DNA from: a virus
Reading direction: 5' to 3' (one strand)
DNA: 64,000 nucleotides
IMG/VR virus record: IMGVR_UViG_3300042945_002173
This document shows positions 5,290 through 60,918 of the stretch, one piece after another. The position numbers and the translations under genes were made by a program. How positions within the stretch are numbered: position 1 is the stretch's first letter; each line of letters starts with the position of its first letter. The notes under the pieces are model-generated. The model was given only the letters and a program-made list of their open reading frames with translations, did no database searches and was not told the origin of the DNA.

Positions 5290-5576
5290 TGTTTCTTCTC
5301 ACTCTTAAAGATCAAAAAGAAGACGGAGCATACGCTGTTCAAAACCGATATGGGGAAAAAGTTCTTTTCCTCTTTGAAGAAGAAGATGATGCGGTTCGTT
5401 ATGCTTTGATGCTTGAAGAGCAAGAAGATACTGAAATGGATGTTGTAGAAGTCGATGATACACTTGCAATAATGACCTGTAAGCGGTATAATTATAAGTA
5501 TGCCGTCGTTACACCAAACGATATTGTTATTCCCCCGAAATTGAATGATAACCTTTCAAAAGATCCGTTGGCGTAA
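5289..5576 (+). CDS. Hypothetical protein, DUF3110-like
   Basis: LFEEEDDAVRYALMLE resembles the cyanobacterial DUF3110 motif. Confidence 0.5.
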   Translation: MFLLTLKDQKEDGAYAVQNRYGEKVLFLFEEEDDAVRYALMLEEQEDTEMDVVEVDDTLAIMTCKRYNYKYAVVTPNDIVIPPKLNDNLSKDPLA

Positions 5577-7272
5577 TTTTCTTTCTACTGGAAACAGTTT
5601 TACGGAAGTTAATTTTCAGAGCAATCATACAAATCTTATTATTGGTACAAACGGAGCAGGGAAGTCAACCATTCTTGATGCGTTGACTTTTGTTTTGTTC
5701 AATAAACCTTTCCGAAAGATTAATAAACCTCAACTGGTCAACACAACCAATGAAAGAGAATGTGTTGTAGAAGTTGAGTTTACGATCAACACTAGAGAAT
5801 ACCTTGTTCGACGTGGTATCAAACCTTCTGTGTTTGATATTGTTGTGAATGGAACTCCAATGCATCGTGAGGCAGATGATCGTGCAATGCAAAGAATTCT
5901 AGAAGAGAGTATTTTAAAACTAAATTATAAGTCTTTTACTCAAATTGTAATTCTAGGTAGCAGTACTTTTGTTCCCTTTATGCAGTTGACTACTGCTAAT
6001 CGGCGTGAGGTGATTGAGGATCTTTTAGATATTCGTGTATTCTCTGCAATGAATAATATTGTAAAGGATAAACTTCGGGAGAAGAAAGAACAGGTTAAGT
6101 CTTTGGATTTGAAAAAAGAAAATATCAAAGATAAGATGAAGATGCAACAGGACTTCATCGAAGAGTTAGAGAATCGTGGTAATGCCAATATTAATATCAA
6201 CAAAGAAAAGATTATCAAGTTAGATTCTGAAGTTGGTAATTGTTTAAAAGATAATGAAAGTATTCAAGATGATATTGATCTTTTAGTTCAGAAGCAGGAA
6301 ACTCTAACTGGTGCTGGAGATAAGTTAGTGAAACTGAACAATCTAAAAGGTAAACTATCTCAAAAAGTAAGTGTTATTACCAAAGAGCATAAGTTTTTCA
6401 CAGAAAATACGGTATGCCCTACTTGCACTCAGAACATTGAAGAAGAGTTTCGGTTAAATAGAATTACAGACGCTCAAAATAAAGCAAAGGAACTCCAGAA
6501 AGGTTTTCAAGAACTCGAGGAGACTATAAATTTAGAACAGGATAGAGAGCGTCAATTCACAGTTCTTTCCAAGGAGATTACGAAACTCAACCATGAGATT
6601 TCTCAAAACAATACTCGGATTTCAATCAACCAGAGACAAATCCGAGATCTTGAAAATGAAATTCAAACAATTGCCCAAAACCTTGCAAACAGAAATACTG
6701 AGCATGAGAAATTAGAGGAATTTAAAGAAAATCTCCAAAAAACATTCGAAGACCTCTCAAAGAAAAAAGAAGAAATCGTTTATTACGATTTTGCCTACTC
6801 CTTACTCAAGGATGATGGCGTTAAAACGAAGATAATTAAGAAGTATCTTCCGTTCATAAATCAGCAGGTGAATCGTTATCTTCAAATGATGGATTTTTAT
6901 ATTAACTTCCATCTGGATGAAGAATTCAATGAAACTGTAAAATCACCCATTCACGAAGACTTTTCTTACAGTTCTTTCAGTGAGGGTGAAAAAATGAGAA
7001 TCGACCTTGCTCTTCTCTTTACTTGGAGAGAAGTAGCACGAGTCAAAAATTCCGTTAATACTAATCTGCTGATTATGGATGAAGTCTTTGATTCTTCACT
7101 TGATGGATTTGGAACTGATGAGTTTCTGAAAATTATTCGTTACGTGATTAAAGACGCTAATATCTTTGTGATCTCTCATAAGTCAGACCTGCATGACAAA
7201 TTTGAAAGTGTCATAAGGTTCGAAAAGGTCAAGGGTTTCTCCCGTATGATGTCCTCACAAGCACAAGACTAA
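5545..7272 (+). CDS. g46: Recombination endonuclease subunit gp46 (Rad50/SbcC-like ATPase)
   Basis: GTNGAGKST, CPTC zinc hook, FSEGE signature, LIMDEVFD. Confidence 0.95.
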   Translation: MITFQKIRWRNFLSTGNSFTEVNFQSNHTNLIIGTNGAGKSTILDALTFVLFNKPFRKINKPQLVNTTNERECVVEVEFTINTREYLVRRGIKPSVFDIVVNGTPMHREADDRAMQRILEESILKLNYKSFTQIVILGSSTFVPFMQLTTANRREVIEDLLDIRVFSAMNNIVKDKLREKKEQVKSLDLKKENIKDKMKMQQDFIEELENRGNANININKEKIIKLDSEVGNCLKDNESIQDDIDLLVQKQETLTGAGDKLVKLNNLKGKLSQKVSVITKEHKFFTENTVCPTCTQNIEEEFRLNRITDAQNKAKELQKGFQELEETINLEQDRERQFTVLSKEITKLNHEISQNNTRISINQRQIRDLENEIQTIAQNLANRNTEHEKLEEFKENLQKTFEDLSKKKEEIVYYDFAYSLLKDDGVKTKIIKKYLPFINQQVNRYLQMMDFYINFHLDEEFNETVKSPIHEDFSYSSFSEGEKMRIDLALLFTWREVARVKNSVNTNLLIMDEVFDSSLDGFGTDEFLKIIRYVIKDANIFVISHKSDLHDKFESVIRFEKVKGFSRMMSSQAQD

Positions 7273-7418
7273 TGCAAGTCCCCAACCGCTATCATCACTC
7301 TAAGAAGGAACAGAAGCGGAAATTAAAACCGCAAGCACTCCGACAAGCAAAAGCACGCCGCCAAGCACTCAAGAAGCGTCTCCAACAAGGGGACGCTTCT
7401 TTTTTAATAAATATCTAA
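7272..7418 (+). CDS. Small basic protein (48 aa), not in the ORF track
   Basis: MQVPNRYHHSKKEQKRKLKPQALRQAKARRQALKKRLQQGDASFLINI; TAATG-coupled to g46. Confidence 0.6.
   Translation: MQVPNRYHHSKKEQKRKLKPQALRQAKARRQALKKRLQQGDASFLINI
7371..7405 (+). terminator. Intrinsic terminator inside the 3' end of the small basic ORF
   Basis: AAGAAGCGTCTCC-AACAA-GGGGACGCTTCTT plus T run. Confidence 0.75.
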
Positions 7419-7435: not shown

Positions 7436-9418
7436 ATGAATAGTAAAGAATATAAAAATTTACAAGAAGCTTATAATTCAATCTATGAGGCTTTAACCGA
7501 TCAGGCAGAATTAGATAAACTTCGTAAGGCATCTGCACAAGCAACGATGGCAGGTCCTTCAAAAGAAGCACAAGCATTGATGAGTGATAGAACTAAAAGA
7601 ATGCTTGGTGCTGATAAGTTGCAAGCAGGCATTGCTGGACAGGAAAGAGTTCAGAGAATGATGAGCGGTACGCCAGAACCTACTTCTACACCAAAACCAA
7701 CTGCACCAACACCTACTAGTACAACTGCTCCTACCCCTAAACCTGCAACGACAGTTAAACCAGGAGATTTTGGTACAACAATGGGTCCTGGACCAACATT
7801 TAAGGGTGGACCAGTTCCTCCTCCAATTCAAAACAAAACTGTCATCAAATCACCTGTTCCTGATAGGAGTGCAGATTATCAGAGAGCTTGGGATAATCGT
7901 AATAATCCACTTGCTAAGGGGCAAATTAGAAATGCTTGGACTAAAATGAGCCCAGAAGAAAAGGCAGCAGCAAAAGAATGGGCAAAGACAAATAATAAAA
8001 ATTGGCAGGAAATGGGGCTTCCCGAACAGAGAGATACTTATGATCAAGTTCTACAAATTCTTTTAGATGAAGGATACTCTGAGCAAGAGTGTAATCAAAT
8101 AATGGTTCAACTTGTGAATGAGGCTGGTCTTGGGGATTTTGTTAAAGCAGTTCAGCAAAGAACTGGTATTGGCAAACCAGGTGTTGGTCCTGGTCAAGTT
8201 GCTAAGAATATTTTGAGAGCAGGAATATCCGATATTCTTGGAACTTCTATTGCAACTGGTTCTACCCCATCATCGGTAAGTGCTGCAAAACCAACTCCAA
8301 CAGTAACATCTTCACCAACGCCAGTTGTTAGAACTTCTACCAAACCTGTTAGAACTGCACCAAAAGGTGCAAATATAGCACCAGATCCTTGGAAACAACC
8401 ATCAACACCTAGAAGTTCTGCAAAACCATCTACGACTACTGCAAGAACTTCAACAACTCCAAAAGCTTTGACTGGTTCTCCAACACCAAGAGCATTATCT
8501 GGATCTCAAACTCGTGCTGCTCTTCCAAGTGGAACACGTGGAGGTGCATTGGTCAAAGGAACACCTGGTGGCGCTATAACTCCCACTGCCAAACCTGGTG
8601 CATTAGTAAAAGTTCAAAAACCTTCTACTCCAACCACAACAACAAGAGCATTACCTGGAACTAACGTCCGTGGACTACTTCCACAGGGAGTTAGAAATGT
8701 TCTGCCAGATCCTTGGAAGCAGGCAACTGATACTGCCTCTGGTGCTAGAAACTTATGGAATAGAGTTCAGCAAGCAGTTAAACCACAAGCACAATTAAAA
8801 CCATCACAGACAAATGTTCGTGGTTTGCTTCCAGCAGCAAAACCATCACCTCAAACTGCGGCAAAACCTGCAACTTCTGTAAGATCACAGCAGTTCCAAG
8901 ATGTCCAAAGATTAAACAAAATGATGAAAGGTGGTTTGATGGGAGAACTACCAAGCACTAAACCAGCATCAAAACCCGCACCTAAACCAACTGGCAATGT
9001 AGATAAGGTAGCACCCAAACCAGCAAAACCAAGTACAAAATTAAAACTTCCTCAGGGACCAGGATCTAACACTTTTGGAAATAGAAAGCAAGGATTCTCT
9101 ATTCCTGGTGGAAGATTGGGTGCTTTTGCCGCAGGTATTCAGGCATATAATACCGCAGATGCAACTCTTAAATCTTCACCTAAGTTACCAACAACTGCAA
9201 AAGATGTTAAAAAAGGTGAAACTTATTATGATCCTTCAACAAGAATAGGACCTTCTCAGAGATTTGCTCAAAGAGAAAAGGTTGGTCCAAAAATTGTTGG
9301 TCCAGGAAAAGTTGGGACTGAGGCACAATCTTTTGATAGAGCTTATAAATCTGCAAAACAAAAAGGTGGTATGGGATCTACGTTTACTTGGAAAGGTAAA
9401 TCTTATAAAGTTGAATGA
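7436..9418 (+). CDS. Large P/T/K/A-rich late protein with shared acidic modules (putative internal virion protein)
   Basis: AATAAATA upstream; LQEAYNSIYE leader; YDQVLQILLDEGY module; long Glu-free basic region. Confidence 0.55.
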   Translation: MNSKEYKNLQEAYNSIYEALTDQAELDKLRKASAQATMAGPSKEAQALMSDRTKRMLGADKLQAGIAGQERVQRMMSGTPEPTSTPKPTAPTPTSTTAPTPKPATTVKPGDFGTTMGPGPTFKGGPVPPPIQNKTVIKSPVPDRSADYQRAWDNRNNPLAKGQIRNAWTKMSPEEKAAAKEWAKTNNKNWQEMGLPEQRDTYDQVLQILLDEGYSEQECNQIMVQLVNEAGLGDFVKAVQQRTGIGKPGVGPGQVAKNILRAGISDILGTSIATGSTPSSVSAAKPTPTVTSSPTPVVRTSTKPVRTAPKGANIAPDPWKQPSTPRSSAKPSTTTARTSTTPKALTGSPTPRALSGSQTRAALPSGTRGGALVKGTPGGAITPTAKPGALVKVQKPSTPTTTTRALPGTNVRGLLPQGVRNVLPDPWKQATDTASGARNLWNRVQQAVKPQAQLKPSQTNVRGLLPAAKPSPQTAAKPATSVRSQQFQDVQRLNKMMKGGLMGELPSTKPASKPAPKPTGNVDKVAPKPAKPSTKLKLPQGPGSNTFGNRKQGFSIPGGRLGAFAAGIQAYNTADATLKSSPKLPTTAKDVKKGETYYDPSTRIGPSQRFAQREKVGPKIVGPGKVGTEAQSFDRAYKSAKQKGGMGSTFTWKGKSYKVE

Positions 9419-9447
9419 ACTATAAATATTTAAAAAGTATTCATAAA

Positions 9448-10092
9448 ATGGAAGCAAAACAAGTTAGAGATTTGATGGAGGCATATGCTTCCGTTTATAC
9501 ACAATCGGAAGAACAAGAAGTCCTTTCAGAAGATCTTCAAGGTGCAGTAGAATCGGGACTTAAAAAAGCTTCTGAGTTTATGAAGACTAATCCTGTTGGT
9601 AAAGCTGTTGGGGCAGTTATTGCTCCTGTTGGAAAGGGACGTGGCACTACAACTAAGGCAGAGCAAGAATCAAAAATTAAATCTAATAAGCAAGAAGATG
9701 TAGATCTATTTGATCTTGTAAAAGGTCATCTGATGGGTGAAGGTTTTGCTGATACCGAAGAAGCAGCACTTGTTATTATGGCAAATATGAGTGAAGATTG
9801 GAAGCAAAGTATCGTTGAGTCTATTGCTCGCGGATCTGCTCCAAATAGTCCAACTGGTACTATCGGTGGTGCTGCTAGTAGAGTTGCTGGTACTTTACTT
9901 CAAAGAGGTGCAGAACTTCTTAAAAAGAATATGCCACAGTCTGGTGGTGGTTATAGCACCAGACCTGGTGATGGTAAGCCTTATAAAGATGGTCCACTTT
10001 GGGGACCAGGTTCTTCTGATGCACCTGTAAGAAAACCAGCTCCCCAAAGAAAACCTCAGGGAGCACCTATGAGAGATGAACCACTTTGGTGA
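9448..10092 (+). CDS. Late protein, modular family paralog
   Basis: TATAAATA at 9421; MEAKQVRDLMEAYASVY leader; DLFDLVKGHLMGEGFADTEEAALVIMANMSEDWKQSIVE module. Confidence 0.6.
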   Translation: MEAKQVRDLMEAYASVYTQSEEQEVLSEDLQGAVESGLKKASEFMKTNPVGKAVGAVIAPVGKGRGTTTKAEQESKIKSNKQEDVDLFDLVKGHLMGEGFADTEEAALVIMANMSEDWKQSIVESIARGSAPNSPTGTIGGAASRVAGTLLQRGAELLKKNMPQSGGGYSTRPGDGKPYKDGPLWGPGSSDAPVRKPAPQRKPQGAPMRDEPLW

Positions 10093-10114
10093 TTAATTTC
10101 TTATAAAACCACTT

Positions 10115-10138
10115 GGAGGTCTTACGACCTCCTTTTTT
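10115..10138 (+). terminator. Intrinsic terminator
   Basis: GGAGGTC-TTAC-GACCTCC-TTTTTT. Confidence 0.8.
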
Positions 10139-10166
10139 AATAAATAAATAAAAAACTATTCGTAAA

Positions 10167-10958
10167 ATGGAAGCAAAACAAGTTAAAGGTCTGATGGAAG
10201 CATATGCTTCTGTCTATGCAAATATTTCAGAATCCCACTTTAAAGTTGGTGATGAAGTTATTTGCAAAGCAAGTGGAATGGAAGGTGAAGTTATTAAACT
10301 TGACAAACCTGATGGTGAAGATGATGAAAAGTACTATACCGTAAAGCGTGAAGACGGTAAGACAATGAAGTATGCGCCGAATGATTTAAAGCTTGCTAAA
10401 AAAGAGAAAGAAGAAAAAGAAGAGAAGGAAGATGTAAAAGAAGCAAAGAATGGTGGAATAAGTGGTTCTTCTGAAACAAAATTCCATAAAAAGTTGGACA
10501 GTTTAGTTCATCATACCTTTGGTAAGAGAAAAGAAGAAAAGGCAATGAAGGAAGAAACTGATGAAGGTGGAAAGCACAAAGAAGGTAAGCATTCTAAGGG
10601 TAAAGAAGAACCTGGTGAAAAGGTAACTGAGAAAGAAGGAAAAGAAAAAGAAAAAGAAGAAAAGGAAATGAAAGAGAGTGCCGATCTCTTTGATTACATT
10701 CTTGAGCACCTAGTTGCCGAAGGTTATGCTGACACCAATAAGGCAGCACTTGCTATTATGGCAAATATGAGTGAAGAGTGGAAGCAAAGTATTGTTGAGC
10801 AGAGTGCTATTGCACAAAGAACTGCATCTGCTGTTGATGATCAAAGAAGAGGTTCTTATGGTATGGCAGATGACCTCAATAAAACTAGAAAGTCTTTGGA
10901 TAAACTAAAGCCTTATCCAAATGGATTTCCTAATGCCGCTGGTGTAAAAGGAGTCTGA
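10167..10958 (+). CDS. Late protein, modular family paralog with SH3/KOW-like insert and E/K-rich region
   Basis: ATAAATA upstream; MEAKQVKGLMEAYASVY; FKVGDEVI..G..GEV; same EGYADT..AAL.IMANMSEEWKQSIVE module. Confidence 0.6.
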   Translation: MEAKQVKGLMEAYASVYANISESHFKVGDEVICKASGMEGEVIKLDKPDGEDDEKYYTVKREDGKTMKYAPNDLKLAKKEKEEKEEKEDVKEAKNGGISGSSETKFHKKLDSLVHHTFGKRKEEKAMKEETDEGGKHKEGKHSKGKEEPGEKVTEKEGKEKEKEEKEMKESADLFDYILEHLVAEGYADTNKAALAIMANMSEEWKQSIVEQSAIAQRTASAVDDQRRGSYGMADDLNKTRKSLDKLKPYPNGFPNAAGVKGV

Positions 10959-10959
10959 G

Positions 10960-11015
10960 TCCACTTTTCAAACTGGCACATAAGAGGGTTTCACCACCCT
11001 CTTTTTTTGTATGAT
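10960..11015 (+). promoter_or_regulatory. Conserved upstream box + terminator hairpin + -10 element (copy 1)
   Basis: TCCACTTTTCAAACTGGCACA, 29 nt, TATGAT; 18/21 identical to the box at 13189. Confidence 0.55.
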
Positions 11016-11037: not shown

Positions 11038-13188
11038 ATGACTGTCCGCCACGAAATCAAGTCCCAACTTGCCAAACTTCTTGCCACCGAAGACCTTGTG
11101 GTTGAGCACAAGAAGGTGGAGACTGCCTGCTTCAACGTTCATACTCGTGTGTTGACTCTGCCGATGTGGGAAAAGGCAAGCAACACCGTCTATGACCTTT
11201 TGGTGGGTCACGAGGTCGGACACGCTCTCTATACGCCTGATGAGGATTGGTTGAAGGAGCACAAGATTCCGCCACAGTTTGTGAATGTGGTTGAGGATGC
11301 TCGCATTGAGAAACTGATGAAGCGCCGTTACGCTGGTCTCGCCAAGACTTTCTTCAACGGTTACAAAGAACTTGCTGACGATGATTTCTTTCAGATTGGT
11401 GATGACAATCTAGAAACTTATAATCTTGCCGATCGTGCAAACCTGTGGTTCAAGATCGGAAACTATATTGATATTCCGATTGAGCGCGGTGAAGAGACTG
11501 AGATTATCAATTTGATTGCTGATAGTGAGACTTTTGGTGATGTTCTGATTGCCGCAAAAGCACTGTATAAGTATTGTAAGCAAAAGCAACAGGAAGAAAC
11601 TAAAACTAAGATTGATAATTTGGAATCTCAAGATAGTGGTGCTACACAGCATCCTGTTTCGGATTTTATTGATCAGCAAGAAGGTGAGAATGATCAATCT
11701 GAAACTGATACTTCACAATCACCTGTTACCAGCGAAACTGAGCAGGAAAAAAAATCAACTAATTCTAGTGAAGGTGGTGAAAAGAATGAAGAACCAGAAG
11801 TCAAAACAATGGATTCTTTGGAAGAGGCATTGAAAGATCTTGTTAATAATGATGGTTATGAGAATGTCTATCTTGAACTTCCTCAACTTGATCTGAATAA
11901 AGTAATTGTTCCTAATAAGGAGATTCACGATAAGTGTAAAGAATCTTGGGATGGTTTTATTAAAGAACGTGAGTATACCTATGAAGGAATTTTTGGTGAA
12001 GTTGATAAGAAATTTGTAGAATTTAAACGGTCTGCTCAAAAGGAAGTTAATTATTTGGTAAAAGAGTTTGAATGTCGTAAGGCGGCAGATTCCTATGCTC
12101 GTGCCACAACTTCACGCACTGGTGTGTTGGATTGTTCAAAACTTCATACCTACAAATATAATGAAGATATTTTCAAGAAAGTAACCACTCTTGCCGATGG
12201 TAAGAATCACGGTCTGGTATTCATTCTTGATTGGTCTGGATCTATGCAGGATGTGATGATGGATACTGTCAAGCAACTTTTTAATCTTGTGTGGTTCTGC
12301 AAGAAAGTAAATATTCCTTTCGAAGTTTATGCTTTTACGACTGATTATCCTTTGGTGAAATACGATGATAATGGTAAAGCAACTATTCGTGAACTTTCCT
12401 ATAAAAAGAAAGATGGACTCATTCAAGTTGGCGAGTGGTTTTCTATGATGAACCTTCTTACCAGTAAGGTGAATGGTAAAACTTTGGATGAGCAGATGAA
12501 GAATATTTTTCGTCTTGCTGTTTCTTTCCGTTATAATTCTCACTGCTATTATGCTGCTCCTCTGGGTATGAGTCTTTCTGGAACTCCTTTGAACGAATCT
12601 TTGATTGCTCTGCATCAAATTCTTCCCAAATTCCAGAAAGAAAATAAACTTCAAAAAGTTCAGTGTGTAATTCTGACAGATGGTGAAGGTTGTCTTCTCA
12701 AATATCATCGTGAAGTTCAACGCCGATGGGAAGAAGATCCTTATATGGGAACTTCTCATATTGGTCCTAATGCCTTTATTCGTGATCGTAAAACAGGAAT
12801 AACTTATTCTTGTGATTGTGAGTATCACGAATTTACTGATATTCTTCTTCAAAATCTGAGAGATAAGTTTGTTGATATCAATTTCATTGGTATTCGTGTA
12901 CTTGAATCGCGTGATGCTGGATCTTTTATTCGTCGTTACTATGGATACTTTGGACCAGAATATGAAAAAGTAATGACTGCCTGGAAGAAAGAAAAGGCAT
13001 TCACGATTAAAAAGTCTGGTTATCATTCTTATTTTGGACTTTCTGCTGCAACTCTTTCGCAGGAATCTGAGTTTGAGGTTGCAGATGATGCCACAAAAGC
13101 ACAAATCAAATCTGCTTTTGTTAAGAGTTTGAAGACTAAAAAAATGAACAAGCGTATTCTTGGTGAGTTTGTTGAACTGGTTGCCTGA
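11038..13188 (+). CDS. CobT-like protein: HExxH metallopeptidase-like N-terminus plus vWA domain
   Basis: HEVGH, NVVEDARIE, DWSGSM MIDAS, LTDGEG; adjacent to a MoxR-type AAA+ gene. Confidence 0.8.
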   Translation: MTVRHEIKSQLAKLLATEDLVVEHKKVETACFNVHTRVLTLPMWEKASNTVYDLLVGHEVGHALYTPDEDWLKEHKIPPQFVNVVEDARIEKLMKRRYAGLAKTFFNGYKELADDDFFQIGDDNLETYNLADRANLWFKIGNYIDIPIERGEETEIINLIADSETFGDVLIAAKALYKYCKQKQQEETKTKIDNLESQDSGATQHPVSDFIDQQEGENDQSETDTSQSPVTSETEQEKKSTNSSEGGEKNEEPEVKTMDSLEEALKDLVNNDGYENVYLELPQLDLNKVIVPNKEIHDKCKESWDGFIKEREYTYEGIFGEVDKKFVEFKRSAQKEVNYLVKEFECRKAADSYARATTSRTGVLDCSKLHTYKYNEDIFKKVTTLADGKNHGLVFILDWSGSMQDVMMDTVKQLFNLVWFCKKVNIPFEVYAFTTDYPLVKYDDNGKATIRELSYKKKDGLIQVGEWFSMMNLLTSKVNGKTLDEQMKNIFRLAVSFRYNSHCYYAAPLGMSLSGTPLNESLIALHQILPKFQKENKLQKVQCVILTDGEGCLLKYHREVQRRWEEDPYMGTSHIGPNAFIRDRKTGITYSCDCEYHEFTDILLQNLRDKFVDINFIGIRVLESRDAGSFIRRYYGYFGPEYEKVMTAWKKEKAFTIKKSGYHSYFGLSAATLSQESEFEVADDATKAQIKSAFVKSLKTKKMNKRILGEFVELVA

Positions 13189-28411: not shown

Positions 28412-28627
28412 ATGGATAAAAATATTCAAGGTTTTATCAAAGAGTTTAAAGGTAAAGAGTTTAAAGACTTTGTATTATTTGTATTTAAAAAAATGCAAAA
28501 AGATATTGATTTAAAAAAGAAAAAGCAGGATAAGGATAAATATATAAAGGTCAGACAAAATTTTTTAAATTATATTATTGCAAACGAAAAAGCAATAACT
28601 ATTGAACTCAATAAGAAATATAAGTAA
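28412..28627 (+). CDS. Small basic hypothetical protein
   Basis: ORF abutting both neighbours. Confidence 0.5.
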   Translation: MDKNIQGFIKEFKGKEFKDFVLFVFKKMQKDIDLKKKKQDKDKYIKVRQNFLNYIIANEKAITIELNKKYK

Positions 28628-29856
28628 TGAAAAGTTTTTTCCAATTTTTAACAGAAACAACTGCTTCCCAACAGGCAGCAAGACTTGGGTTGCAAGGTGA
28701 TGGGCACGGCGGATGGTATGATAGAAAAACGGGAGAGTTTGTCGCAAAGACTGAAAAAGGTAGGTTGAAGTTTTATAATAAGCGTCAAGGAATTGGTAAA
28801 GATCCTGCTCAGACAGAGACTGAAAAGAATATCTCAGATCCAAATTTTGTAGATCCCGTATTACAACAACAGCAAGCACCTGCTCCTCAACCAGTTGCTC
28901 AGGAAGCACCACCTGTAAATTTCCTTCCTGTTGAAAAGACAAAAGGAACATTAACGATTGCATTTGGTCGTTTCAATCCTCCACATCTGGGACATCTTCA
29001 ACTGATGGATACTGCTGCTGCATCGGCAGAGCAAGAAGGTAGTGACTATATGATTATTCCTTCTCGTACACAAGATAAGAAAAAGAATCCCCTTGATGCT
29101 GATACAAAAGTTGCATTGATGAGATCAATGTTCCCTCAGCATAGTGAGAGAATTGTAAATGATGCCAACACCAGAACTATTTTTGATGTTCTTAAAAAAG
29201 CACATAATGATGGATATACGAATGTGAGAATCGTTGGTGGTGCCGATAGAGTGAATGAATTTAACAAACTTGCCAATAATTACAATGGAAATCTTTATGC
29301 CTTTGATAATATTGAGGTAGTTTCTGCTGGTGACCGAGATCCAGACTCTGATGGTGTTGAAGGTCTTTCTGCATCCAGAATGCGTCTTGCTGCTGCTGAA
29401 GGTGATTTCAAAACATTTCGTTTAGGAATGCCACCAGATATGAGACCAAAAGATGCAAGAGCAGTTTTTGATACTGTTCGTGCTGCAATGGGCATTCAAG
29501 ATCAGGTTGCAGAAGTTTGGGAGATTGCACCTAAGTTTGATCAGGGTACTTTGCGCGAAAACTATGTTAGAGAAGCAATCTTTAAGATTGGGCAGTTGGT
29601 TGAGAATCTAAATACTGGTCTTATTGGACGCATTATACGTCGTGGAACTAATTACTTGATCTGTGTCACAGAAGACCATATTATGTTTAAGTCTTGGATT
29701 AAGGATGTGATGGAAGCAAAACTTACAAATAGAAGTGGTGTTCCTGCTGATCAAAGACTTGTTGGAACTGATGCATATCGTGAATATGTTGAGACGATGG
29801 TTCCTGGACGTACTTGGGGAAGACAATTCATAAATAAGTATAGAAAAAGTAAGTAA
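28627..29856 (+). CDS. HIGH-family nucleotidyltransferase ('cytidyltransferase') with capsid-targeting-like N-terminus
   Basis: FGRFNPPHLGH, VGGADR, SASRMR; starts MKSFFQFLTE. Confidence 0.8.
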   Translation: MKSFFQFLTETTASQQAARLGLQGDGHGGWYDRKTGEFVAKTEKGRLKFYNKRQGIGKDPAQTETEKNISDPNFVDPVLQQQQAPAPQPVAQEAPPVNFLPVEKTKGTLTIAFGRFNPPHLGHLQLMDTAAASAEQEGSDYMIIPSRTQDKKKNPLDADTKVALMRSMFPQHSERIVNDANTRTIFDVLKKAHNDGYTNVRIVGGADRVNEFNKLANNYNGNLYAFDNIEVVSAGDRDPDSDGVEGLSASRMRLAAAEGDFKTFRLGMPPDMRPKDARAVFDTVRAAMGIQDQVAEVWEIAPKFDQGTLRENYVREAIFKIGQLVENLNTGLIGRIIRRGTNYLICVTEDHIMFKSWIKDVMEAKLTNRSGVPADQRLVGTDAYREYVETMVPGRTWGRQFINKYRKSK

Positions 29857-37122: not shown

Positions 37123-37806
37123 ATGTCTGGACGCATTTATCTAATAACCAATAAAATCAATAATAAAACTTATGTTGGAAAGACAATGAACTCTTTGAAA
37201 AAAAGATTTTATAGTCACTGCTATGATGCCACTAAAAGAAGTTCAACAACATATCTTCATCGGGCAATTAGAAAGTATGGAAAAGACAATTTTATTATTG
37301 AAGAAATTGAAAAATGTGAAGATAATTTAGGTTTTAGAGAAATGTTTTGGATTTCTAAATTAAAACCAAAATATAATCAAACTCTTGGTGGTGATGGAGG
37401 AATTCTTGGATATTCTCATACGAAAGATACAAGAAAACTTTTATCTTTAAAAAGAAAAGGAAAGTTTGTGGGACATAAAAATTCATTCTACAATCAAACA
37501 CATACCGAAGAACAAAAAGAAAAGTGGAGTAAAATGAGAAAGGGACAACCATCTCCTTGTGGATTTGCTGGAAAATCACATAAAGAAGAAAGTAAATCTA
37601 AAACTTCTCAAACACTAAAAAACAATCCAAACATAAAAAGAACCAAAGTATTCCAGTATGATATTGAAGGAAACTTTTTAAGAGAGTTTCAATCTATTAG
37701 TGATGCTGCTAAATTTGTAGAAACAAATCCTTCTAACATTAAATATACCTGTGAAGGAAAATTCAATCACTGTAAAGGATATAGGTGGAGTTATGTTAAA
37801 ATATAA
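37123..37806 (+). mobile_element. Free-standing GIY-YIG homing endonuclease (NUMOD3 + NUMOD1) between nrdA and nrdB
   Basis: IYLITN..N.K.YVG, AIRKYGKDNF, YNQTLGGDG, QYDIEGNFLREF.SI.DAA. Confidence 0.88.
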
Positions 37807-39354: not shown

Positions 39355-39383
39355 GGGGGGATCTTCGGATCCCCCTTTTTTTT
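39355..39383 (+). terminator. Intrinsic terminator
   Basis: GGGGGATC-TTCG-GATCCCCC plus T run; late promoter TATAAATA directly after. Confidence 0.85.
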
Positions 39384-39413
39384 ATAAATATCTAAAAAGG
39401 TAGTCGGTAGGCG

Positions 39414-41453
39414 ATGAAGTCGTTTCAGAATTTTGCATATAATATTGTAGAGGAACCTCGTAAGGCATTTGGCACACCAAGTCGTTTTGACGCACAAGGT
39501 GAACCAATGTATACAAAAAGACCTGGACCAAATGAACCAGGTCGTAGAGCACAGGTTCAAAAATCACCTAAAACAGTTACTCAAGTAAAGGGTGAAATTG
39601 AAGCGGCAAAGAGATTTGCAGGCGCAAGATCTGGTGGATTGGATACTAGAAATGTACCATCTTTTGTAACTCAAAGAAGACAAGAAAGAGCAAGTAAATT
39701 ACTTGGACCAAATCCTTGGGATATGCCAGGTGGTGCTGGTGCTGGTCAAAAAACTTTTGATCGTGGAATGAGAAAACTTGTTCCACCAGCTGGTCCTTCA
39801 AGAGGTCATAGAGAAAGAGCATTTAGAGATTTCATTAATCAGTCATCAAAAGAACTTGGAACTTCTACTGATGAGATCATTGCAAATATGATGAAGGGAA
39901 AATCAGCAACGCCTTTTGCAAGTCCAGTTGCTGCAACACCAGATCCTTGGAAACCATCTGAAACTGCAACAACACCACCAAAACCAAAACCAGTAAGTCA
40001 GGCAGACGTTTCTAAGAAGCAGGCATCATATAGAGCGTCTCAGAAACCTCCATCACCACCTAAGACTGAACTTGGTGGAACTAAAAAAGCAGTATCATTC
40101 TCAACTCCAACTAGATCAAAGACTTCGGTATCACCAAGGACTTCTGTTTTAGATGTTAAGGCAACAGAAGTTCCTGGAACAAAAGTTGCAGAACCAAAAG
40201 CAAAAACATTACCAGGTTTAAAACTTGGTACAGAACCTGCTGGTCCATTAGTATCTAATCGTCCAGGAGAATCAAAAACAATTCGACCACAAAAAGGACC
40301 TGGAAGAACTGGTGTTCTTGGAAAACCAAAAGCTGGGCAAATGGTTGGCGCTAAAATTGAACCAGTAAAAGTTGCCGATGTTACTCCTAAAACTCCAAAG
40401 ATTACTGGTCAAGGCGTTGTAAAAACAAAACCACTTTCTATACCAGCACCACCTAAACCTGTTGTGCAGGCAAAGACTAATTTAAAACCAACACCAGTAA
40501 AGGTACAGAAATCAACAGCATTAAAAATTCCAAGTCCTGCTGCACCAAAAATTAAACCGTTATCTGCTACTAGAACTACACAATCTCAAAAACTTGCTGA
40601 TACCGTAATTAAAGCATCTAAGCAAATTAGATCTGATATTGCAGCAGAAAGAGCATCAGAAAGAGCAAAGATGATGAAAGGTCTTGGCACTGCTGGAAAA
40701 GTTCTTAGTGCTGTTCAGACTGGAATAGAAGCGAAGAAAGGTTATGATATTGCTAAGGCAATGGGTAGTAGTGAAAGAAGATCAATAGGTGCTGGTGCTG
40801 CAAGAGCGATTGGAAGTGGTCTTGGTGGTGTAGTTGGAGGAACACTTGGATCTGTTGCTGGACCAATTGGTTCTGCTGTTGGTGCAACTGCTGGAATAAC
40901 CATAGGATCACAACTTGGATCAAGAGCATATGATGTAATTACTGGTGATCCTAAGAAAAAGGTAACGACTCAGGGTGTTCTCACTAATATTAGAAAGGCA
41001 GTTCCACAAGAAATCAGAGCACAAGTACCTGCAAATGTAAGAAAGGGATTTACTGATTTCGTAAAATCTGCTGGAAAAACTTATGGTGATTGGCAGAGAT
41101 CACAACAAAAAGAAGAATACCAATTAGATGAATTTAATATAAAGACGATTTCTGGAAAATTTGCTAAATCTGCTGGTGCCGAGATTGGAGGTGAAGTTAT
41201 TAAAAAGGCAAGTGGAAATAATCCGATTGTAAGAAAAGCAGTTGATATTGCAACTTCCGGAGTTGGTCTTGGGCGTGTTGCAGGACCTGCGGCTGTTGGG
41301 TATACATTAGGTACAGAAGTACTAGCACCTGCTGCTGTTAAATTGGCCCAACAAAGAAGGCAGGCACAGCAAGCAAGATTAAATCAGTTAGTTCCATCAG
41401 GAAGAACCGACGTTTCTGGAAAACCTGCTCAAATCAGACCATTGAATAGATGA
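39414..41453 (+). CDS. Large basic K/P/T-rich late protein with glycine zipper (putative internal/ejected protein)
   Basis: MKSFQNF..IVEE leader; PDPWK motif; GSGLGGVVGGTLGSVAGPIGSAVGATAG. Confidence 0.55.
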   Translation: MKSFQNFAYNIVEEPRKAFGTPSRFDAQGEPMYTKRPGPNEPGRRAQVQKSPKTVTQVKGEIEAAKRFAGARSGGLDTRNVPSFVTQRRQERASKLLGPNPWDMPGGAGAGQKTFDRGMRKLVPPAGPSRGHRERAFRDFINQSSKELGTSTDEIIANMMKGKSATPFASPVAATPDPWKPSETATTPPKPKPVSQADVSKKQASYRASQKPPSPPKTELGGTKKAVSFSTPTRSKTSVSPRTSVLDVKATEVPGTKVAEPKAKTLPGLKLGTEPAGPLVSNRPGESKTIRPQKGPGRTGVLGKPKAGQMVGAKIEPVKVADVTPKTPKITGQGVVKTKPLSIPAPPKPVVQAKTNLKPTPVKVQKSTALKIPSPAAPKIKPLSATRTTQSQKLADTVIKASKQIRSDIAAERASERAKMMKGLGTAGKVLSAVQTGIEAKKGYDIAKAMGSSERRSIGAGAARAIGSGLGGVVGGTLGSVAGPIGSAVGATAGITIGSQLGSRAYDVITGDPKKKVTTQGVLTNIRKAVPQEIRAQVPANVRKGFTDFVKSAGKTYGDWQRSQQKEEYQLDEFNIKTISGKFAKSAGAEIGGEVIKKASGNNPIVRKAVDIATSGVGLGRVAGPAAVGYTLGTEVLAPAAVKLAQQRRQAQQARLNQLVPSGRTDVSGKPAQIRPLNR

Positions 41454-41726
41454 AATTTTTGTAAGTGTATGCTAGGATGGTGTGGGATACCATACCACAT
41501 TTTTATTATGAAAACTTTTGTTAAGAAAACAAATTGTCTTTTGAAAAAGGAAGCAAAAGAATTTTGTTCTGATATTGTTTATATTTGTAATGGCATTATC
41601 CGTACATTTAAAAAACTATTATTAGAACGTTATTTTATTCTCGGAATTCTAATTGGACTTATTTTGCGGTTTGTTTTTTAGTTCTTCTTTTTTTATAAAT
41701 ATTTTTAAGAAAAAATTTTTAAAAAA

Positions 41727-42272
41727 ATGGGTAACTTATCGTCAAAACAAGTGCTGGATATTCAATCTTTGTATGAAGGAATTTACCAAGATGGACAGGA
41801 AAGCATTGAAAATATATCAGAAGAAGATTTTTGTGATATCTTAGCAATTGAAATTTGCAATGCCCTCATTGAAGAAGGTTTGCTAGAAGGTGAAGTTATA
41901 TCTGAAACTACTATTAAAGAAGGAAAACTAACGTCTGCTGTTAAAAGTGCTTGGGGCGTAATTAAACCAGTTATCAAACAAGTAACAGGTATTGGTACAA
42001 AACCAACAACGCGAGTAGGAAGAGTAATAAGAACAGGTCAAACTCTAGCTACCGGTGCTGCGGTTGTTCAACCAGAAAGAACTTTGAATATTGCTACTGG
42101 AACAGTTGGTGGAGCAGTTAAGGGTGCTTATCAAGGCGCAACTAAACCAACTGGTGGTGGTCCAATAGATGCCGCAGGAAGAGCAATTAAGGCTGCTCAA
42201 GGTCAAGCAGTTCCTGCTGCGGATGACAGGAGAAGAAATTCAAACGGAACTACAACTTGGAGCACTCCCTGA
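41727..42272 (+). CDS. Late protein with acidic leader and basic Gly/Ala-rich C-terminus
   Basis: TATAAATA at about 41694; LYEGIY leader and LIEEG module resemble the modular family. Confidence 0.5.
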   Translation: MGNLSSKQVLDIQSLYEGIYQDGQESIENISEEDFCDILAIEICNALIEEGLLEGEVISETTIKEGKLTSAVKSAWGVIKPVIKQVTGIGTKPTTRVGRVIRTGQTLATGAAVVQPERTLNIATGTVGGAVKGAYQGATKPTGGGPIDAAGRAIKAAQGQAVPAADDRRRNSNGTTTWSTP

Positions 42273-43984
42273 TGAAATCCGAAAACGTAAACGAAGCAAC
42301 TTATACTGGAAAGGTAGTTGTATCCCGCAAAGGTGGAAAACTTGGAGCGGTTCTTATTGATCCAAAAACTGGTAAACCTATTCCAGGATCTTGGAGACCA
42401 GAAAAGGAAGTTCCTGGCGGAATACCACAAGCAAACAAATCTGCCTTCTTTAAAAAGGAGGCAGAGAAAATAAGATCTGCCGAAAAAGATAGATTATCAA
42501 AAATTGATGGGGGGTCTAAACCCCCAGCAGCACCACCCCCAAGACCCTCTAGCACACCACCAGCAGCACCTGCACCTGCCCCTGCTAGACCCTCTGGACC
42601 CTCTGGAACAACCCCTGCACCCGCTCCTACGGCACCTAAACCATCACCAGTAGCGGCGTATATGAAGGCTGCTGCTGATGCTAGAAAGAGCGGAGACCCC
42701 GCTGAGATGGCGAAGGTAAGGGATATGGGTATGGAGATTTGGAGAAAATCAAATCCAAAACTTGCGGCCGCCGCTGCTGAGAGAGAAAGAATTCGTGGAA
42801 CCGCTCAGACTGATAATCCTCTTATGAAAGATATGAGAGGTGGTCTTTCTCTCACTCCTAGTGTTCAGGCACCAGCAGTTAAGAATCTTGGATCTGGGCA
42901 ACAATCACTTTCTCAGAACCCTAATGCAGCAATTGCTGCAACTCCAAAACCACAAGTTCCACCAGTTACTGCAAGTAAAGATGCTACAATGAATAAGACT
43001 GCCGAAACTCTTTCAAAAAATCCACTTCCAAAGAAAACTCAAAAAGAAGCATATGATATTGTTCTAGATTATCTTCTTTCTGAGGGTCACGCTGATACTC
43101 TTTCAGAAGCACATTATGTAATGATGCAAATGGATGCCGAACACATTCAGAATATTGTTATTCAAGAGCGTGCTTGGTGGGATCCAGCTGGTCTTTTTAT
43201 GACTAAGAATGAAAAAGCAGTAGAAAAAGCAAAATCAACTGCAACTGGTGCTGGTGGATCATATAACCCTAACACTGGTAGAACTTATAATCCAACAGCA
43301 AAAGATCAAACAAGAGCAACTGGTGTGATTGCACCAAGAGGTGGTATTGTTGGAACTATGGAACCAGGCAAACCAGAAACTTGGCAGAGATATGCACCAG
43401 GTTCTGATGCTTTTAGAAGACAGAACATTGACAGATATGTAACTGTTCGTGGTCGTGAGCAGCTGCAAATTGATGATCTTGCAAATCGTGCAATGAAAGA
43501 TAAGGCAAAAAGAGATGCTGCTGCCGATGCTGCATTTGATAGAAAGTATGGTGTAAATCAACCATCTGGTGATGAATTTGCAGGCGCTCGTAAAAATACA
43601 AAAACCTTTACACAACCTAGTGCTTCTCCTGCTACCCCAAGACCTAGCACAAGACCTAGCACAAGACCTGCCGCAAAACCAATTGCTACTGCACCAAAAC
43701 CAAAACCTCAACCACCAACCATTCAGTCTAAGAATGTAACTTCTACTGGAACTTCTTATGAAAGAAGAACTCCAACCTCAGCAGAACTTGCCGCCGCTAA
43801 GGCAGCAGGTGGTGGTGAGGCAGGTGTAAAGGCCGCGGTTGATGTTGCCAAATCAAATAAAGTTGCTGCAAAGTCACCAACTCCGGATCTTAAACCAGAG
43901 GCACCTAAAAAGAGAGAAAGTCTTGCTGCTCAGGTGAAAGAACTTCAAACAATGCGAAAAGAAGCAGAAGAAAGAAACAAGTGA
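42272..43984 (+). CDS. Large P/A/K-rich protein, modular family member
   Basis: TGATG-coupled; KEAYDIVLDYLLSEGHADTLSEAHYVMMQM module. Confidence 0.55.
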   Translation: MKSENVNEATYTGKVVVSRKGGKLGAVLIDPKTGKPIPGSWRPEKEVPGGIPQANKSAFFKKEAEKIRSAEKDRLSKIDGGSKPPAAPPPRPSSTPPAAPAPAPARPSGPSGTTPAPAPTAPKPSPVAAYMKAAADARKSGDPAEMAKVRDMGMEIWRKSNPKLAAAAAERERIRGTAQTDNPLMKDMRGGLSLTPSVQAPAVKNLGSGQQSLSQNPNAAIAATPKPQVPPVTASKDATMNKTAETLSKNPLPKKTQKEAYDIVLDYLLSEGHADTLSEAHYVMMQMDAEHIQNIVIQERAWWDPAGLFMTKNEKAVEKAKSTATGAGGSYNPNTGRTYNPTAKDQTRATGVIAPRGGIVGTMEPGKPETWQRYAPGSDAFRRQNIDRYVTVRGREQLQIDDLANRAMKDKAKRDAAADAAFDRKYGVNQPSGDEFAGARKNTKTFTQPSASPATPRPSTRPSTRPAAKPIATAPKPKPQPPTIQSKNVTSTGTSYERRTPTSAELAAAKAAGGGEAGVKAAVDVAKSNKVAAKSPTPDLKPEAPKKRESLAAQVKELQTMRKEAEERNK

Positions 43985-51436: not shown

Positions 51437-53608
51437 ATGTCTTACGCTAAGAAGGCGCTTGTTTTAGCGTCTGCTCTTTTAATGGGAGCACCAACTGCAT
51501 TTGCAGATACTATTTCTGGTACAGATTTTGAGTCTGGAAATACCTCAGGTTGGAATACTGGAAATCAAACAGGAACATTAGACAGCACAATCACTGGGCA
51601 GGGAACTGGTGTTAGTGTTGTCGATAATCCAGTAATCTTCAATGCACCCTCTCACGGAGCAGTAGGAAGTCCAACTCTCCAAGATGGTTCTCCTAACCCA
51701 TACCACGCACCCGCAGTAACACCAACAACTTGGGAGTTTGCTCCTTATGGAGATGCTGGTGCTGCATTGCAACCAAATGGTCAAGCAACATTTAACCAAG
51801 CAACAGAAGCACTTGGATTAACTGCGGCAGAAAACCAAGCAATCAAAGATCTTCTCATCCAACAACAACAAGCATCTGGATTAGGAAATCCAAATCCAAC
51901 TGATGCTGCTTGGATTACAAAGTCAGTGACTTTGCAAACTGGAACAGTTTATACAATGTCTTGGAACTACATTGGAACTGATTATGTTCCTTTCAATGAT
52001 GGTTCTATTACATCACTTGTTTATCAAGGAACAGGTTCATCTCCAACAGTAACAGTTAATAATCAACTTCAAAACTATGCACTGCTTGGGTTTACTAATC
52101 CTGGAACTGGTGACTATTCAACTGGAACTTATGGTTCTACTGGATGGCAGTATTCAACATATCAAGTAGGTGCTGATGGAGATTATCTCTTAGGATTTGC
52201 AGTATTCAACCTCGGAGACACTGCATTATCACCAGTTCTCTTAGTTGATAGTCAGCCTGGAACTACAACACAGAATGGTCAAGCATTTACACCTGTTGCT
52301 CCAAACAATCCAGATGCACCATCTGTTGATGAAGTAGCACCAACCCCAACTCCTGAACCTACACCAGAACCAGAACCCACTCCAACACCTGAACCAGAAC
52401 CTACCCCAGAGCCCACACCAGAACCAACCCCTGATCCAACTCCAACTCCTGAACCTACCCCAGAGCCCACACCAGAACCTACTCCTGAACCCACACCAGA
52501 ACCTACTCCTGAACCTACACCTGAGCCCACACCAGAACCTACTCCTGAGCCCACACCTGATCCCACACCAGAACCCACTCCTGAACCAGAATCTCCAACA
52601 TTATTAAACTCTGTAACTGTTCCTGCACCAGGACTTCCAGTTGTTGTTACTACTGAGGTTACTCATACAGCATCTGAAAAAGATGGAGTTCAAAAGATTA
52701 GAAGAGATTTTGCAACTACAAGTCAAACTCCTTTATTACAGCAAGATACTTATAGTGATGGAACTGTTATAAGTTCATTACTTCTTTCTGTTGATACAAA
52801 CAATACTCACGATGTTCTTTCTGGACGTATTGATCAGCACGAAGTTTTAGATAAGATTGGTGGTGGATTACAAAATCTTTTCATTCACGAACCATCTCAA
52901 CCAACCACAGATAAAGTAAGAGTATTCAGCAACAATTATTATGCTTGGTCTTATGGTGACTATGGATACACTGGTAAGTCGTTGATTATTGGTGGTGGAT
53001 TAGAAATTGATATCAAACCAACTTGGACTATTGGTGGTCAGTATAATAATGTGAATATTGATTTAGGTGGTGTTGATAGTACTTCTAGTCTTGTTAAGGG
53101 TCATTATGGTTTCTTTAATATGTTCCGTGGAAATACATTCTCACTCTTAACTAATGCTGGTTTCTCTCAGAACAAATATAATGTATCAAGAAATGTTCAG
53201 GGTATCTTTAATAATGAAAGTTCAACACAAGGAAAAGAATGGTTTGTAAATAACAGATTATTCTGGCATCTCAATAAGAACATAACTTCATTTGTTGGAT
53301 ATACCGTTGGTAATTACCAGAGAGATGGTTTTACTGAAACTGGTTCTATTCAATCAAGAAGAACCGTAGATACTATAAACAAAACTTCACATTCTGGTGA
53401 GGTTGGTCTAAATATTTCGCATCGTTTTGGTGGTAAGAAGAAGGATTTATTCGGCATAACTGTCGGTGGTTCTTATGAAACCAGCGGAATGATCGAGGCA
53501 AATGCTTCTGTTGATTATAAGGAAATGATAATTATTGAAGGAATTCATCAAATTAATGATGGGGTTTCTAACACAGCAGTATCTGCAAAGGTTAAATTTA
53601 AGTTCTAA
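51437..53608 (+). CDS. Autotransporter-like outer-membrane protein with Pro-rich linker
   Basis: Signal peptide, (PEPT)n stalk, amphipathic beta-strand C-terminal domain ending VKFKF. Confidence 0.65.
52339..52590 (+). repeat. Coding tandem repeat (PEPT/PTPE)n
   Basis: About 12-nt units such as CCTGAACCTACA / CCAGAACCCACT. Confidence 0.9.
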
Positions 53609-58633: not shown

Positions 58634-58707
58634 GGACCAGTAACTCAGTGGACAAGAGTATCCGCCTTCTAAGCGGTTAGCCGTAGGTTCGAATCCTACC
58701 TGGTCCG
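58634..58707 (+). tRNA. tRNA-Arg(TCT)
   Basis: Cloverleaf; CCGC-CT-TCT-AA-GCGG; promoter TTGACA-17-TATAAT at 58588-58616. Confidence 0.92.
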
Positions 58708-58734
58708 TTGGAGATTTATTCTCCAAATTTATAA

Positions 58735-58806
58735 TCCACAATGGCGCAGCGGTAGCGCAGATGACTGTTAATCATTTGGTCCCTGGTTCGAATCCAGGTT
58801 GTGGAG
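58735..58806 (+). tRNA. tRNA-Asn(GTT)
   Basis: TCCACAA/TTGTGGA acceptor stem; GTT anticodon. Confidence 0.92.
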
Positions 58807-58886
58807 TAGGGAGAACTAGAAATGTCTGGGACTTCCTCTAAATCCTAAGTTTACTTAGGTCGGGGATTTGATCACCCCCGCTAGTT

Positions 58887-58958
58887 GCCCTTGTAGCTCA
58901 GTGGTAGAGCGCGGCTTTTGTAAAGCCGATGTCGCAAGTTCAAATCTTGTCGGGGGCT
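58887..58958 (+). tRNA. tRNA-Thr(TGT)
   Basis: CGGCT-TT-TGT-AA-AGCCG. Confidence 0.9.
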
Positions 58959-59012
58959 TGACATAATATTCATTATGTCTTATACTTTACAAGTCCGTGT
59001 GAAGTGAAGTGC

Positions 59013-59084
59013 TGAGAGTGAAGCCAAAAGTAAGGCACCCCGACAAGGGATACAGTAGAAGGATGCGAAACCTTCCACTCTCAC
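59013..59084 (+). ncRNA. tRNA-like RNA with degenerate anticodon arm
   Basis: TGAGAGTG/CACTCTCA stem, GCC/GGC arm, GAAGG/CCTTC T-like arm; upstream promoter TTGACA-17-TATACT. Confidence 0.45.
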
Positions 59085-59087
59085 ATT

Positions 59088-59159
59088 GCGGAGTTAGTTC
59101 AGTGGTAGAACGCTATCCTTCCAAGTTAGATGTCGTCGGTTCGAATCCGATACTCCGCT
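59088..59159 (+). tRNA. tRNA-Gly(TCC)
   Basis: GCGGAGT/ACTCCGC acceptor stem; TCC anticodon. Confidence 0.92.
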
Positions 59160-59280
59160 TATAAAACCAAAAAGCTTGACTGATCCCAAAGAAAATGTTA
59201 AGATAAATACCGTGATCAATCGTGCCGCAACTACTTGCACGATTTTCACTATGTCGTTTAGTACTAAAAACAAATTTTTT

Positions 59281-60774: not shown

Positions 60775-60796
60775 TAAACCACTCATAAGTTGAGTG

Positions 60797-60824
60797 AAAG
60801 CACCCCAGAAAGGGGTGCTTTTTT
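60797..60824 (+). terminator. Intrinsic terminator
   Basis: AAAGCACCCC-AGAAA-GGGGTGCTTT plus T run. Confidence 0.85.
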
Positions 60825-60834
60825 ATGAAACCAG

Positions 60835-60867
60835 AACCTTAACCAAATCTTAGTGGACTTTAAGGTT
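60835..60867 (+). promoter_or_regulatory. Putative Pho box upstream of pstS
   Basis: CTTAACCA-AAT-CTTAGTGG-AC-TTTAAGGT, roughly 11-bp periodic PyTTAA repeats. Confidence 0.5.
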
Positions 60868-60918
60868 CTCTTCCAGTATTATTACTTACGAAGTCAATTC
60901 ACTTCCAAAAAACTTTTT

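Follow-up and report, generated by a model that had tools for sequence, protein, structure and literature searches.

In a 64,000-nucleotide (nt) stretch of viral DNA, the IMG/VR record IMGVR_UViG_3300042945_002173 (hereafter the window), we find three tandem genes, named here by their start positions 7436, 9448 and 10167, which encode a common N-terminal leader and a common acidic module followed by basic segments of differing sequence. The window comes from a T4-like cyanomyovirus (Kyanoviridae). Its gp46 homolog (5545–7272) is 85.6% identical to gp46 of the freshwater Synechococcus phage S-SRM01 and 72–82% identical to gp46 of S-SKS1 and P-SSM2, and the only DNA-level match in the isolate collection was a stretch of 120 bases at the gp46 end, again to S-SRM01. 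The three genes lie between gp46 and a gene for a CobT-like protein of 716 amino acids (aa; 11038–13188). The same site is occupied by one hypothetical gene in S-SRM01 and by other small genes in P-SSM2.

All three ATG codons are found 19–25 nt downstream of a late-promoter-like box of the TATAAATA type, which bears out the proposal of the initial annotation that these are tandem genes each with its own late promoter. Exact copies of TATAAATA occur eight times in the window, every one on the + strand. From the positions of the boxes and of the terminator-like hairpins (Table 1) we deduce the layout terminator, promoter, gene 7436 and gene 9448 (with its own box), terminator, promoter, gene 10167, terminator. 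The leader motif reads LQEAYNSIY in gene 7436 and LMEAYASVY in the other two, matching the common L.EAY.S[IV]Y described earlier, and in all three L-x-E stands at residues 9–11 and is followed by Ala; the leader peptides read MEAKQVRDLME and MNSKEYKNLQE.

Table 1. Features of the three-gene locus and of related genes elsewhere in the window.
Feature	Position	Strand	Remarks
Terminator-like hairpin closing the gp46 unit	7371..7401	+	13-bp stem, then T run; box of gene 7436 directly after
Late-promoter-like box AATAAATA	7406..7413 (about)	+	22 nt upstream of gene 7436 ATG; repeat family D3
Gene 7436, 660 aa	7436..9418	+	leader MNSKEYKNLQE/AYNSIYE, Pro/Thr-rich spacer, short-form module, 431-aa basic cargo
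Short-form module of gene 7436	8033..8122	+	residues 200–229; ends LVNE
Cargo of gene 7436	8123..9415	+	basic; Pro-, Thr-, Lys- and Gly-rich; two PDPWK motifs
TATAAATA box	9421..9428	+	overlaps end of gene 7436; 19 nt upstream of ATG at 9448
Gene 9448, 214 aa	9448..10092	+	leader, conserved spacer, module, 90-aa cargo ending PLW; longer open reading frame 9415–10092
Module of gene 9448, 39 aa	9703..9819	+	ends IVE; 76.8 bits
Terminator-like hairpin	10115..10132	+	3′ of gene 9448
Late-promoter-like box AATAAATAAATA	10139..10150 (about)	+	upstream of gene 10167; repeat family D3
Gene 10167, 263 aa	10167..10958	+	leader, insert (SH3-like element and Glu/Lys-rich stretch), module, 52-aa cargo ending KGV
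Module of gene 10167, 39 aa	10683..10799	+	ends IVE; 81.2 bits
Cargo of gene 10167, 52 aa	10800..10955	+	no Glu
Terminator-like hairpin	10982..11003	+	3′ of gene 10167
Cytidylyltransferase-like protein (PF01467)	28627..29856	+	starts MKSFFQFLTE
Polyprotein-like gene, 663 aa	29871..31862	+	repeated linkers ending [IV]-x-E
Basic protein, 679 aa	39414..41453	+	behind TATAAATA at 39383–39390; N-terminus MKSFQNFAYNIVEE; syntenic with PSSM2_211
Gene 41727	41727..42272	+	leader-like N-terminus SLYEGIY, behind TATAAATA at 41694–41701; corresponds to N-terminal part of P-SSM2 PSSM2_212
Basic protein, 570 aa	42272..43984	+	module copy 43046–43159, 55.6 bits; matches rest of PSSM2_212 (gene cluster T4-GC207)

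A module profile built from 37 module copies was used to scan the window. The module positions given in the initial annotation were upheld at 9694–9820, 10672–10799 and 43043–43167, and at 8024–8122 as a short variant, but the weak copy suspected within 41727–42272 gave no match to the profile. In gene 7436 the profile match is itself weak (8033–8110, 7.8 bits). We nevertheless regard this copy as genuine, because the 431-aa cargo that follows it has 48 homologs and each of them keeps the same short-form module in front (...YDxVLExLLxEGY[ST]xxExNxIMVxL[VI]NE), at a distance from the leader that ranges from zero to ~280 residues. The protein encoded by gene 7436 has a net charge of +52 and carries [ILV]-x-E sites at residues 9, 16, 195, 210 and 227 only, none of them past the VNE at 227–229. 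Glu is absent from residue 230 to residue 503, and this run of 274 residues corresponds to the stretch of about 270 aa after LVNE that had been noted before.

Genes 9448 and 10167 have two DNA repeats in common, 9432–9501 with 10151–10220 (87% identity) and 9739–9828 with 10719–10808 (86%). Their leader and module DNA had been called near-identical and the DNA between them unrelated; the conserved blocks are there, but near-identical was somewhat too strong a term, as the two genes share 84% identity over the whole leader block and 78% over that of the module. Only three mismatches fall within the final 57 nt of the module, and identity collapses directly after the GTTGAG codons (Val-Glu). The SH3-like element in the insert of gene 10167 (10245–10319; residues 27–51), which has a weak match to PF20297 MSSS (E = 0.003, below cut-off), is also found in family members with other cargo (P0026, P0120 and P0360).

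The same organization is seen across the family to which these genes belong. Of 231 full-length members, 194 have the leader motif somewhere in their first 45 residues, and in 162 of these 194 it starts at residue 9, giving an 11-residue peptide that ends in L-x-E and is followed by Ala-Tyr. The module is acidic in every case (median net charge −0.2 per residue) and ends in I-x-E in 269 and in [ILV]-x-E in 278 of 337 copies; most of the remaining copies end in ILD, with examples reading ILDE. Two modules are present in 71 and three in 2 of 270 family proteins (73 multi-module proteins), with basic segments between them. These segments are net positive in 98% of cases (median 114 residues), as are 95% of those after the last module (median 57 residues). 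Both kinds are rich in Gly, Pro, Lys and Arg, with ~19% hydrophobic residues and almost no Cys. The initial annotation was accordingly right both about the [ILV]-x-E ends and about the basic nature of what follows them. Recurrent cargo C-termini are ...KGV and ...PLW. Ahead of the module, [ILV]-x-E sites are enriched, at 2.35 per 100 aa against 1.32 expected. In viral contigs, a late-promoter box stands ahead of 100 of 125 family genes, compared with 111 of 645 background open reading frames (ORFs).

The module defines a very large, unnamed, phage-only family. An exhaustive metagenome protein search with the module profile returned 3,839 clusters (at the 50% identity level) with E ≤ 1e-3, whose proteins hold one to three modules and shuffled cargo, and 2,444 of them at E ≤ 1e-10, a number that excludes chance. 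For gene 9448 we count 632 relatives of comparable length, all of them lacking a name and a Pfam domain. Pfam, NCBIfam and the ESM Atlas yielded nothing with a name, and the profile found no match below E = 1 among the sequences of solved structures. Gene 9448 does match phrog_3708 (residues 71–128, E = 4.5e-6) and phrog_22522 (residues 62–128, E = 2e-4), and the module has thus already been clustered among phage proteins; these two families cover the module region of gene 9448 but carry no annotation or described function, and neither is matched by genes 7436 and 10167. In the RefSeq annotation of S-CRM01, g291 and g292 are hypothetical. One weak match in the family suggested a PARP-domain cargo (E = 5e-4); its carrier was not found among ten long members, and the candidate was dropped on account of the weakness of the match.

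The module was confirmed in at least 567 IMG/VR stretches. Among 185,579 prokaryotic species genomes, three module loci were confirmed, all on small contigs of metagenome-assembled genomes, and at the locus L024 the gene order gp46, module gene, cobT identifies the contig as phage DNA. Other genes homologous to the T4-like genes of the window are found in 68 of 83 module loci. Among whole phage records, S-SRM01 and S-CRM01 have four module copies each, and P-SSM2 and DSL-LC02 two each.

Similarity between family members, in protein as well as in DNA, stops exactly at the module-terminal Glu. When module pairs at least 85% identical are compared (n = 4,069), 91% show random-level identity over the next 30 residues and ~9% show at least 40% ungapped identity there, so that the cargo is shuffled among relatives rather than conserved with the module, as had been foreseen. 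About 207 distinct tail starts occur among 418 modules, and tail families beginning SIARGSAPNSP, TIAGGGYTPNP, QMTINVADVKG, ADSVEAMRA and AKYGTKAGR recur behind leaders and inserts of several kinds. Sixteen proteins with differing leaders, inserts and module variants carry the 52-aa cargo of gene 10167 at 74–98% identity. A homologous segment (E = 3e-7) makes up residues 255–304 of the polyprotein-like product of gene 29871, where it directly follows a linker ending in MIDE, and in the same protein a DUF3008 domain (residues 424–479) starts two residues past a linker ending in ISE. The positions of the 52-aa cargo and of DUF3008 indicate that cargo units are conserved, are bounded by [ILV]-x-E and occur on more than one kind of carrier.

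The variation extends to whole loci. The gp46/cobT site in related contigs holds zero, one, two or three module genes with differing cargo, and in L027, the closest relative, all three genes recur with identities of 84%, 80% and 56%. At least two family genes are present in 41 of 80 viral loci, and module genes are repeatedly found elsewhere too, at 28 loci downstream of nrdB and at 10 loci beside the cytidylyltransferase gene.

We propose that the three genes encode precursors of internal head proteins that are targeted to the prohead and processed by gp21, a reading which fits the data best and to which we would give an even chance of being correct; packaging, cleavage, ejection and the role of the cargo are what we infer from the pattern just described. 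The gp21 protease of T4 cleaves head proteins behind L/I-x-E. Internal proteins of T4 begin with a capsid targeting sequence (CTS) of 10 residues, MKTYQEFIAE, which is removed after its Glu and is sufficient to load foreign proteins into the head, and among T-even phages the internal proteins are diverse, with only the CTS in common (as summarized in PMC3012670 for work from 1994, and in PMC9026906 for Mullaney and Black, 1996). gp21 was present in 16 of 16 cyanomyoviruses compared and was detected in virions of S-SM1 (Sullivan et al.); it is also present in S-CRM01, the carrier of four module copies.

The likeness between the family and the T4 internal proteins covers several points. Both are products of late genes, which for the cyanophage family is indicated at the sequence level by the promoter boxes, and both are basic, as seen in the 95–98% of net positive segments. 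Both start with a peptide of ~10–11 residues that ends in L/I-x-E and precedes a small residue, both consist of diverse cargo with only the constant tag in common and vary like cassettes between related phages, and a T4-type gp21 protease is available in the phage group. On the other hand, T4 has nothing that corresponds to the acidic three-helix module of 39 residues, and the cyanophage family includes many polyproteins with two or three modules and is far larger (3,839 clusters). What is new compared with the T4 internal-protein/CTS cassettes is that a further constant element is present, that proteins are laid out as polyproteins and that the cargo repertoire is very large, all in a phage group of dominant ecological standing. 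No match to an internal-protein family was found in Pfam, PHROGs or NCBIfam that would indicate homology to IPI, IPII or IPIII, and a full-text literature search for capsid targeting sequences or internal proteins of cyanophages turned up papers on T4 and other non-cyanophage systems alone, with no account of such proteins in cyanophages.

A second comparison can be made with the giant phages phiKZ, 201phi2-1 and SPN3US, in which many head proteins are cut after Glu at a three-residue motif and a gp21-like protease processes head propeptides and ejection or inner-body proteins. Their propeptides hold several redundant sites, and the part of the cyanophage proteins ahead of the module is similarly enriched in [ILV]-x-E. 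The giant phages belong to another lineage, however, the phiKZ motif is S/A-x-E, and their propeptides have no single portable conserved module in common.

We suggest the following course of events. The leader (11 residues, ending in L-x-E before Ala) and the acidic module (30–39 residues, ending in [IV]-x-E) would carry the precursor into the assembling prohead core, where the module may also mask or neutralize the basic cargo. A prohead protease of the gp21 type would then clip off the constant parts, with one cut behind Glu11 and another behind the last Glu of the module, and the released basic peptides (about 50–90 residues; 431 for gene 7436) would stay with the packaged DNA and probably be ejected along with it. 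Cargo could be exchanged by recombination through the conserved promoter, leader and module DNA, which would give rise to the differing cargo sets at the same loci in related phages.

This interpretation is partly supported, in that it agrees with every prediction tested at the sequence level, yet a number of observations weigh against it. The leader has no sequence similarity to MKTYQEFIAE, and only its length and its L-x-E end before Ala agree. Depletion of [ILV]-x-E within the cargo is slight (0.55–0.59 per 100 aa against 0.67–0.69 expected), and in the predicted fold the proposed cut falls within the third module helix. The module is conserved and long far beyond the need of a tag that is clipped off. 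In some members it is C-terminal, with the larger part of the protein ahead of it, and others are little more than a module, such as PSSM2_140 (51 aa, ending ...TIVG; L018:2063–2218) and 52-aa ORFs in four viral contigs. The module was also absent, by two module profiles, from S-SM1, S-PM2, Syn9 and S-CREM2, the phages with accessible virion proteomes, and Table S8 of Sullivan (2010) holds no cluster that contains it. Modules that stand alone or at the C-terminus speak against a role as address tag only, and these, together with the strong conservation and the cut in helix 3, are the reason why we keep two other explanations open, a core component and a LisH-like domain. In four contigs (L067, L073, L077 and L090) a module ORF of 51–52 aa is found 4 nt upstream of a module gene of 461–586 aa, just past cobT; these stand-alone modules could be separate genes, or parts of a split or recoded gene.

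The proteins could be accessory components of the prohead core or scaffold, with module and tails acting in assembly (core building, head-size control or packaging charge balance) and being afterwards degraded and expelled, or kept as inert peptides, instead of being ejected as effectors. The T4 core proteins gp22, gp67 and gp68 are cut into peptides at many L/I-x-E sites, the cargo looks disordered and is rich in Lys and Arg like a DNA counter-ion, stand-alone modules fit core components, and multi-module proteins could cross-link a core. But the family is not universal, being missing from the four phages just named, and one locus may hold anything from zero to three copies, as would be expected of accessory cargo more than of assembly parts. 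Strong sequence conservation within individual cargo types further suggests a specific function. We consider a role in the core or scaffold unlikely on balance.

The fold predicted for gene 9448 bears on the second explanation, in which the module is an interaction or oligomerization domain with a first helix pair like that of LisH, the proteins act late in the infected cell and are not packaged, and the tails are fast-evolving disordered regions. The module is predicted as three short helices (residues 87–98, 104–113 and 116–127) with a pLDDT (predicted local distance difference test) of about 82, while the full-length prediction has low confidence outside it (mean pLDDT 58.8). The first two helices resemble the LisH pattern (PF08513), and weak matches to this family, located on the first module helix, were obtained for 5 of 148 members (best E = 3.5e-6). 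High conservation, a confident predicted fold and the existence of module-only and C-terminal-module proteins are all to be expected of such a domain. However, the window proteins have no LisH match at E ≤ 1, the matches in relatives span only ~13 residues, and LisH has nothing that corresponds to the third helix or the I-x-E end. Furthermore, the tails form discrete conserved families that have been recombined, which goes beyond mere drift, and the explanation does not account for the break at a protease-type motif, for the fixed 11-residue peptide with L-x-E before Ala, or for the pattern of acidic constant and basic variable parts. We rate its chances as lower still than those of a core component. 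For self-association of the module, a prediction for two copies of gene 9448 residues 78–130, made with an alignment, scored 0.39 against a mark of 0.42 and was used neither way.

A conserved N-terminal part joined to a hypervariable C-terminal part also brings to mind precursors of ribosomally synthesized and post-translationally modified peptides (RiPPs). Picocyanobacteria have such peptides with Nif11 or NHLP leaders, and here the leader and its variable core would be encoded by the phage; single family members show weak Pfam matches to Frankia_peptide and NHase_alpha. The near absence of Cys from the cargo (0.03–0.05%) speaks against this, and so does the cargo length of 25–125 residues and beyond, to a maximum of 431, which exceeds the usual size of a RiPP core. 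The window proteins match no RiPP leader family in Pfam or NCBIfam, no maturase gene lies close to them, their neighbors being gp46, the CobT-like gene and nrdB, and multi-module proteins under late-promoter control are a poor fit. We therefore regard RiPP precursors as very improbable, and return to internal head proteins as the reading that we favor.

Other genes of these phages give indirect experimental support for T4-style capsid targeting in cyanomyoviruses, by way of a tag that differs from the leader and module. The cytidylyltransferase-like protein encoded at 28627, whose N-terminus MKSFFQFLTE is similar to the T4 CTS, has orthologs that retain such a tag and start MKKFSAFLNE (S-SM1), MKKFSAFLSE (Syn9) and MKSFSQFLTE (P-SSM2), and their cluster, T4-GC190, was represented by 25 peptide counts in purified S-SM1 virions (Sullivan et al.), which suggests that this protein is a packaged enzyme. 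The N-terminus of gene 39414, MKSFQNFAYNIVEE, resembles the T4 CTS, and similar tags are present on basic proteins of P-SSM2 (PSSM2_211, MKSLSQFIIE; PSSM2_213, VKTYQQFNE). In S-CRM01, the basic Pro/Lys/Thr-rich g33 (219 aa, L023:36132–36791), encoded between the terminase genes gp16 and gp17, starts with MRTFESFLAE followed by Ala; among the tags compared, this one is nearest to the T4 CTS.

More tentatively, and with less confidence than we place in the processing of internal proteins as such, we suggest that leader and module form a portable address system that loads hundreds of small basic peptides, and occasionally folded domains, for delivery to the host, with the conserved DNA serving as a recombination handle and the cargo as injected early effectors, for example against host defenses. 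If so, the cargo pool would be a large unexplored reservoir of such effectors. T4-like cyanophages are among the most abundant viruses of lakes and oceans, and should the proposed processing be correct, it would account in one stroke for an unnamed family that comprises several thousand clusters. Mature virion peptides could then be predicted from sequence by rule, foreign proteins could be loaded into cyanophage capsids by means of a natural tag, and candidate injected effectors could be catalogued; the turnover of these candidates between close relatives is suggestive of an arms race with the defenses of the host. The cassette logic of the T4 internal proteins would then be ancient and have been elaborated into polyproteins.

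Other parts of the window show related features. The product of gene 29871, with linkers of the type [AS][HS][FYT]E[PML][DET]G.[LMV][IV].E between its units, resembles a second kind of protease-cut polyprotein. Downstream of nrdB, a conserved cluster of large basic proteins (39414–41453 in the window; PSSM2_211–213 in P-SSM2; L017:738–4655) shows T4-tag-like N-termini (MKSFQNF..., MKSLSQFIIE and VKTYQQFNE) and a glycine-zipper-like C-terminal region (weak PF13488 match). A cargo common to genes 7436 and 39414 was considered and rejected: direct comparison gave low-complexity similarity only (E = 0.016), and the PDPWK motif present in both is therefore no evidence of common cargo.

Two further ORFs, 1083–1736 and 37123–37806, each lie behind a TATAAATA box and have GIY-YIG-like N-termini (...IYKITN... 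and ...IYLITNK...YVGKT); the second is located between nrdA and nrdB, and both probably encode homing endonucleases. Within a 723-aa ORF (51437–53608), positions 52315–52623 hold ~16 overlapping copies of a repeat with a 12-nt period, which encodes a tandem four-residue protein repeat. Finally, several tRNA-like segments with a common GGTTCGAATCC (repeat families D7 and D19) are found at 58665–62327.

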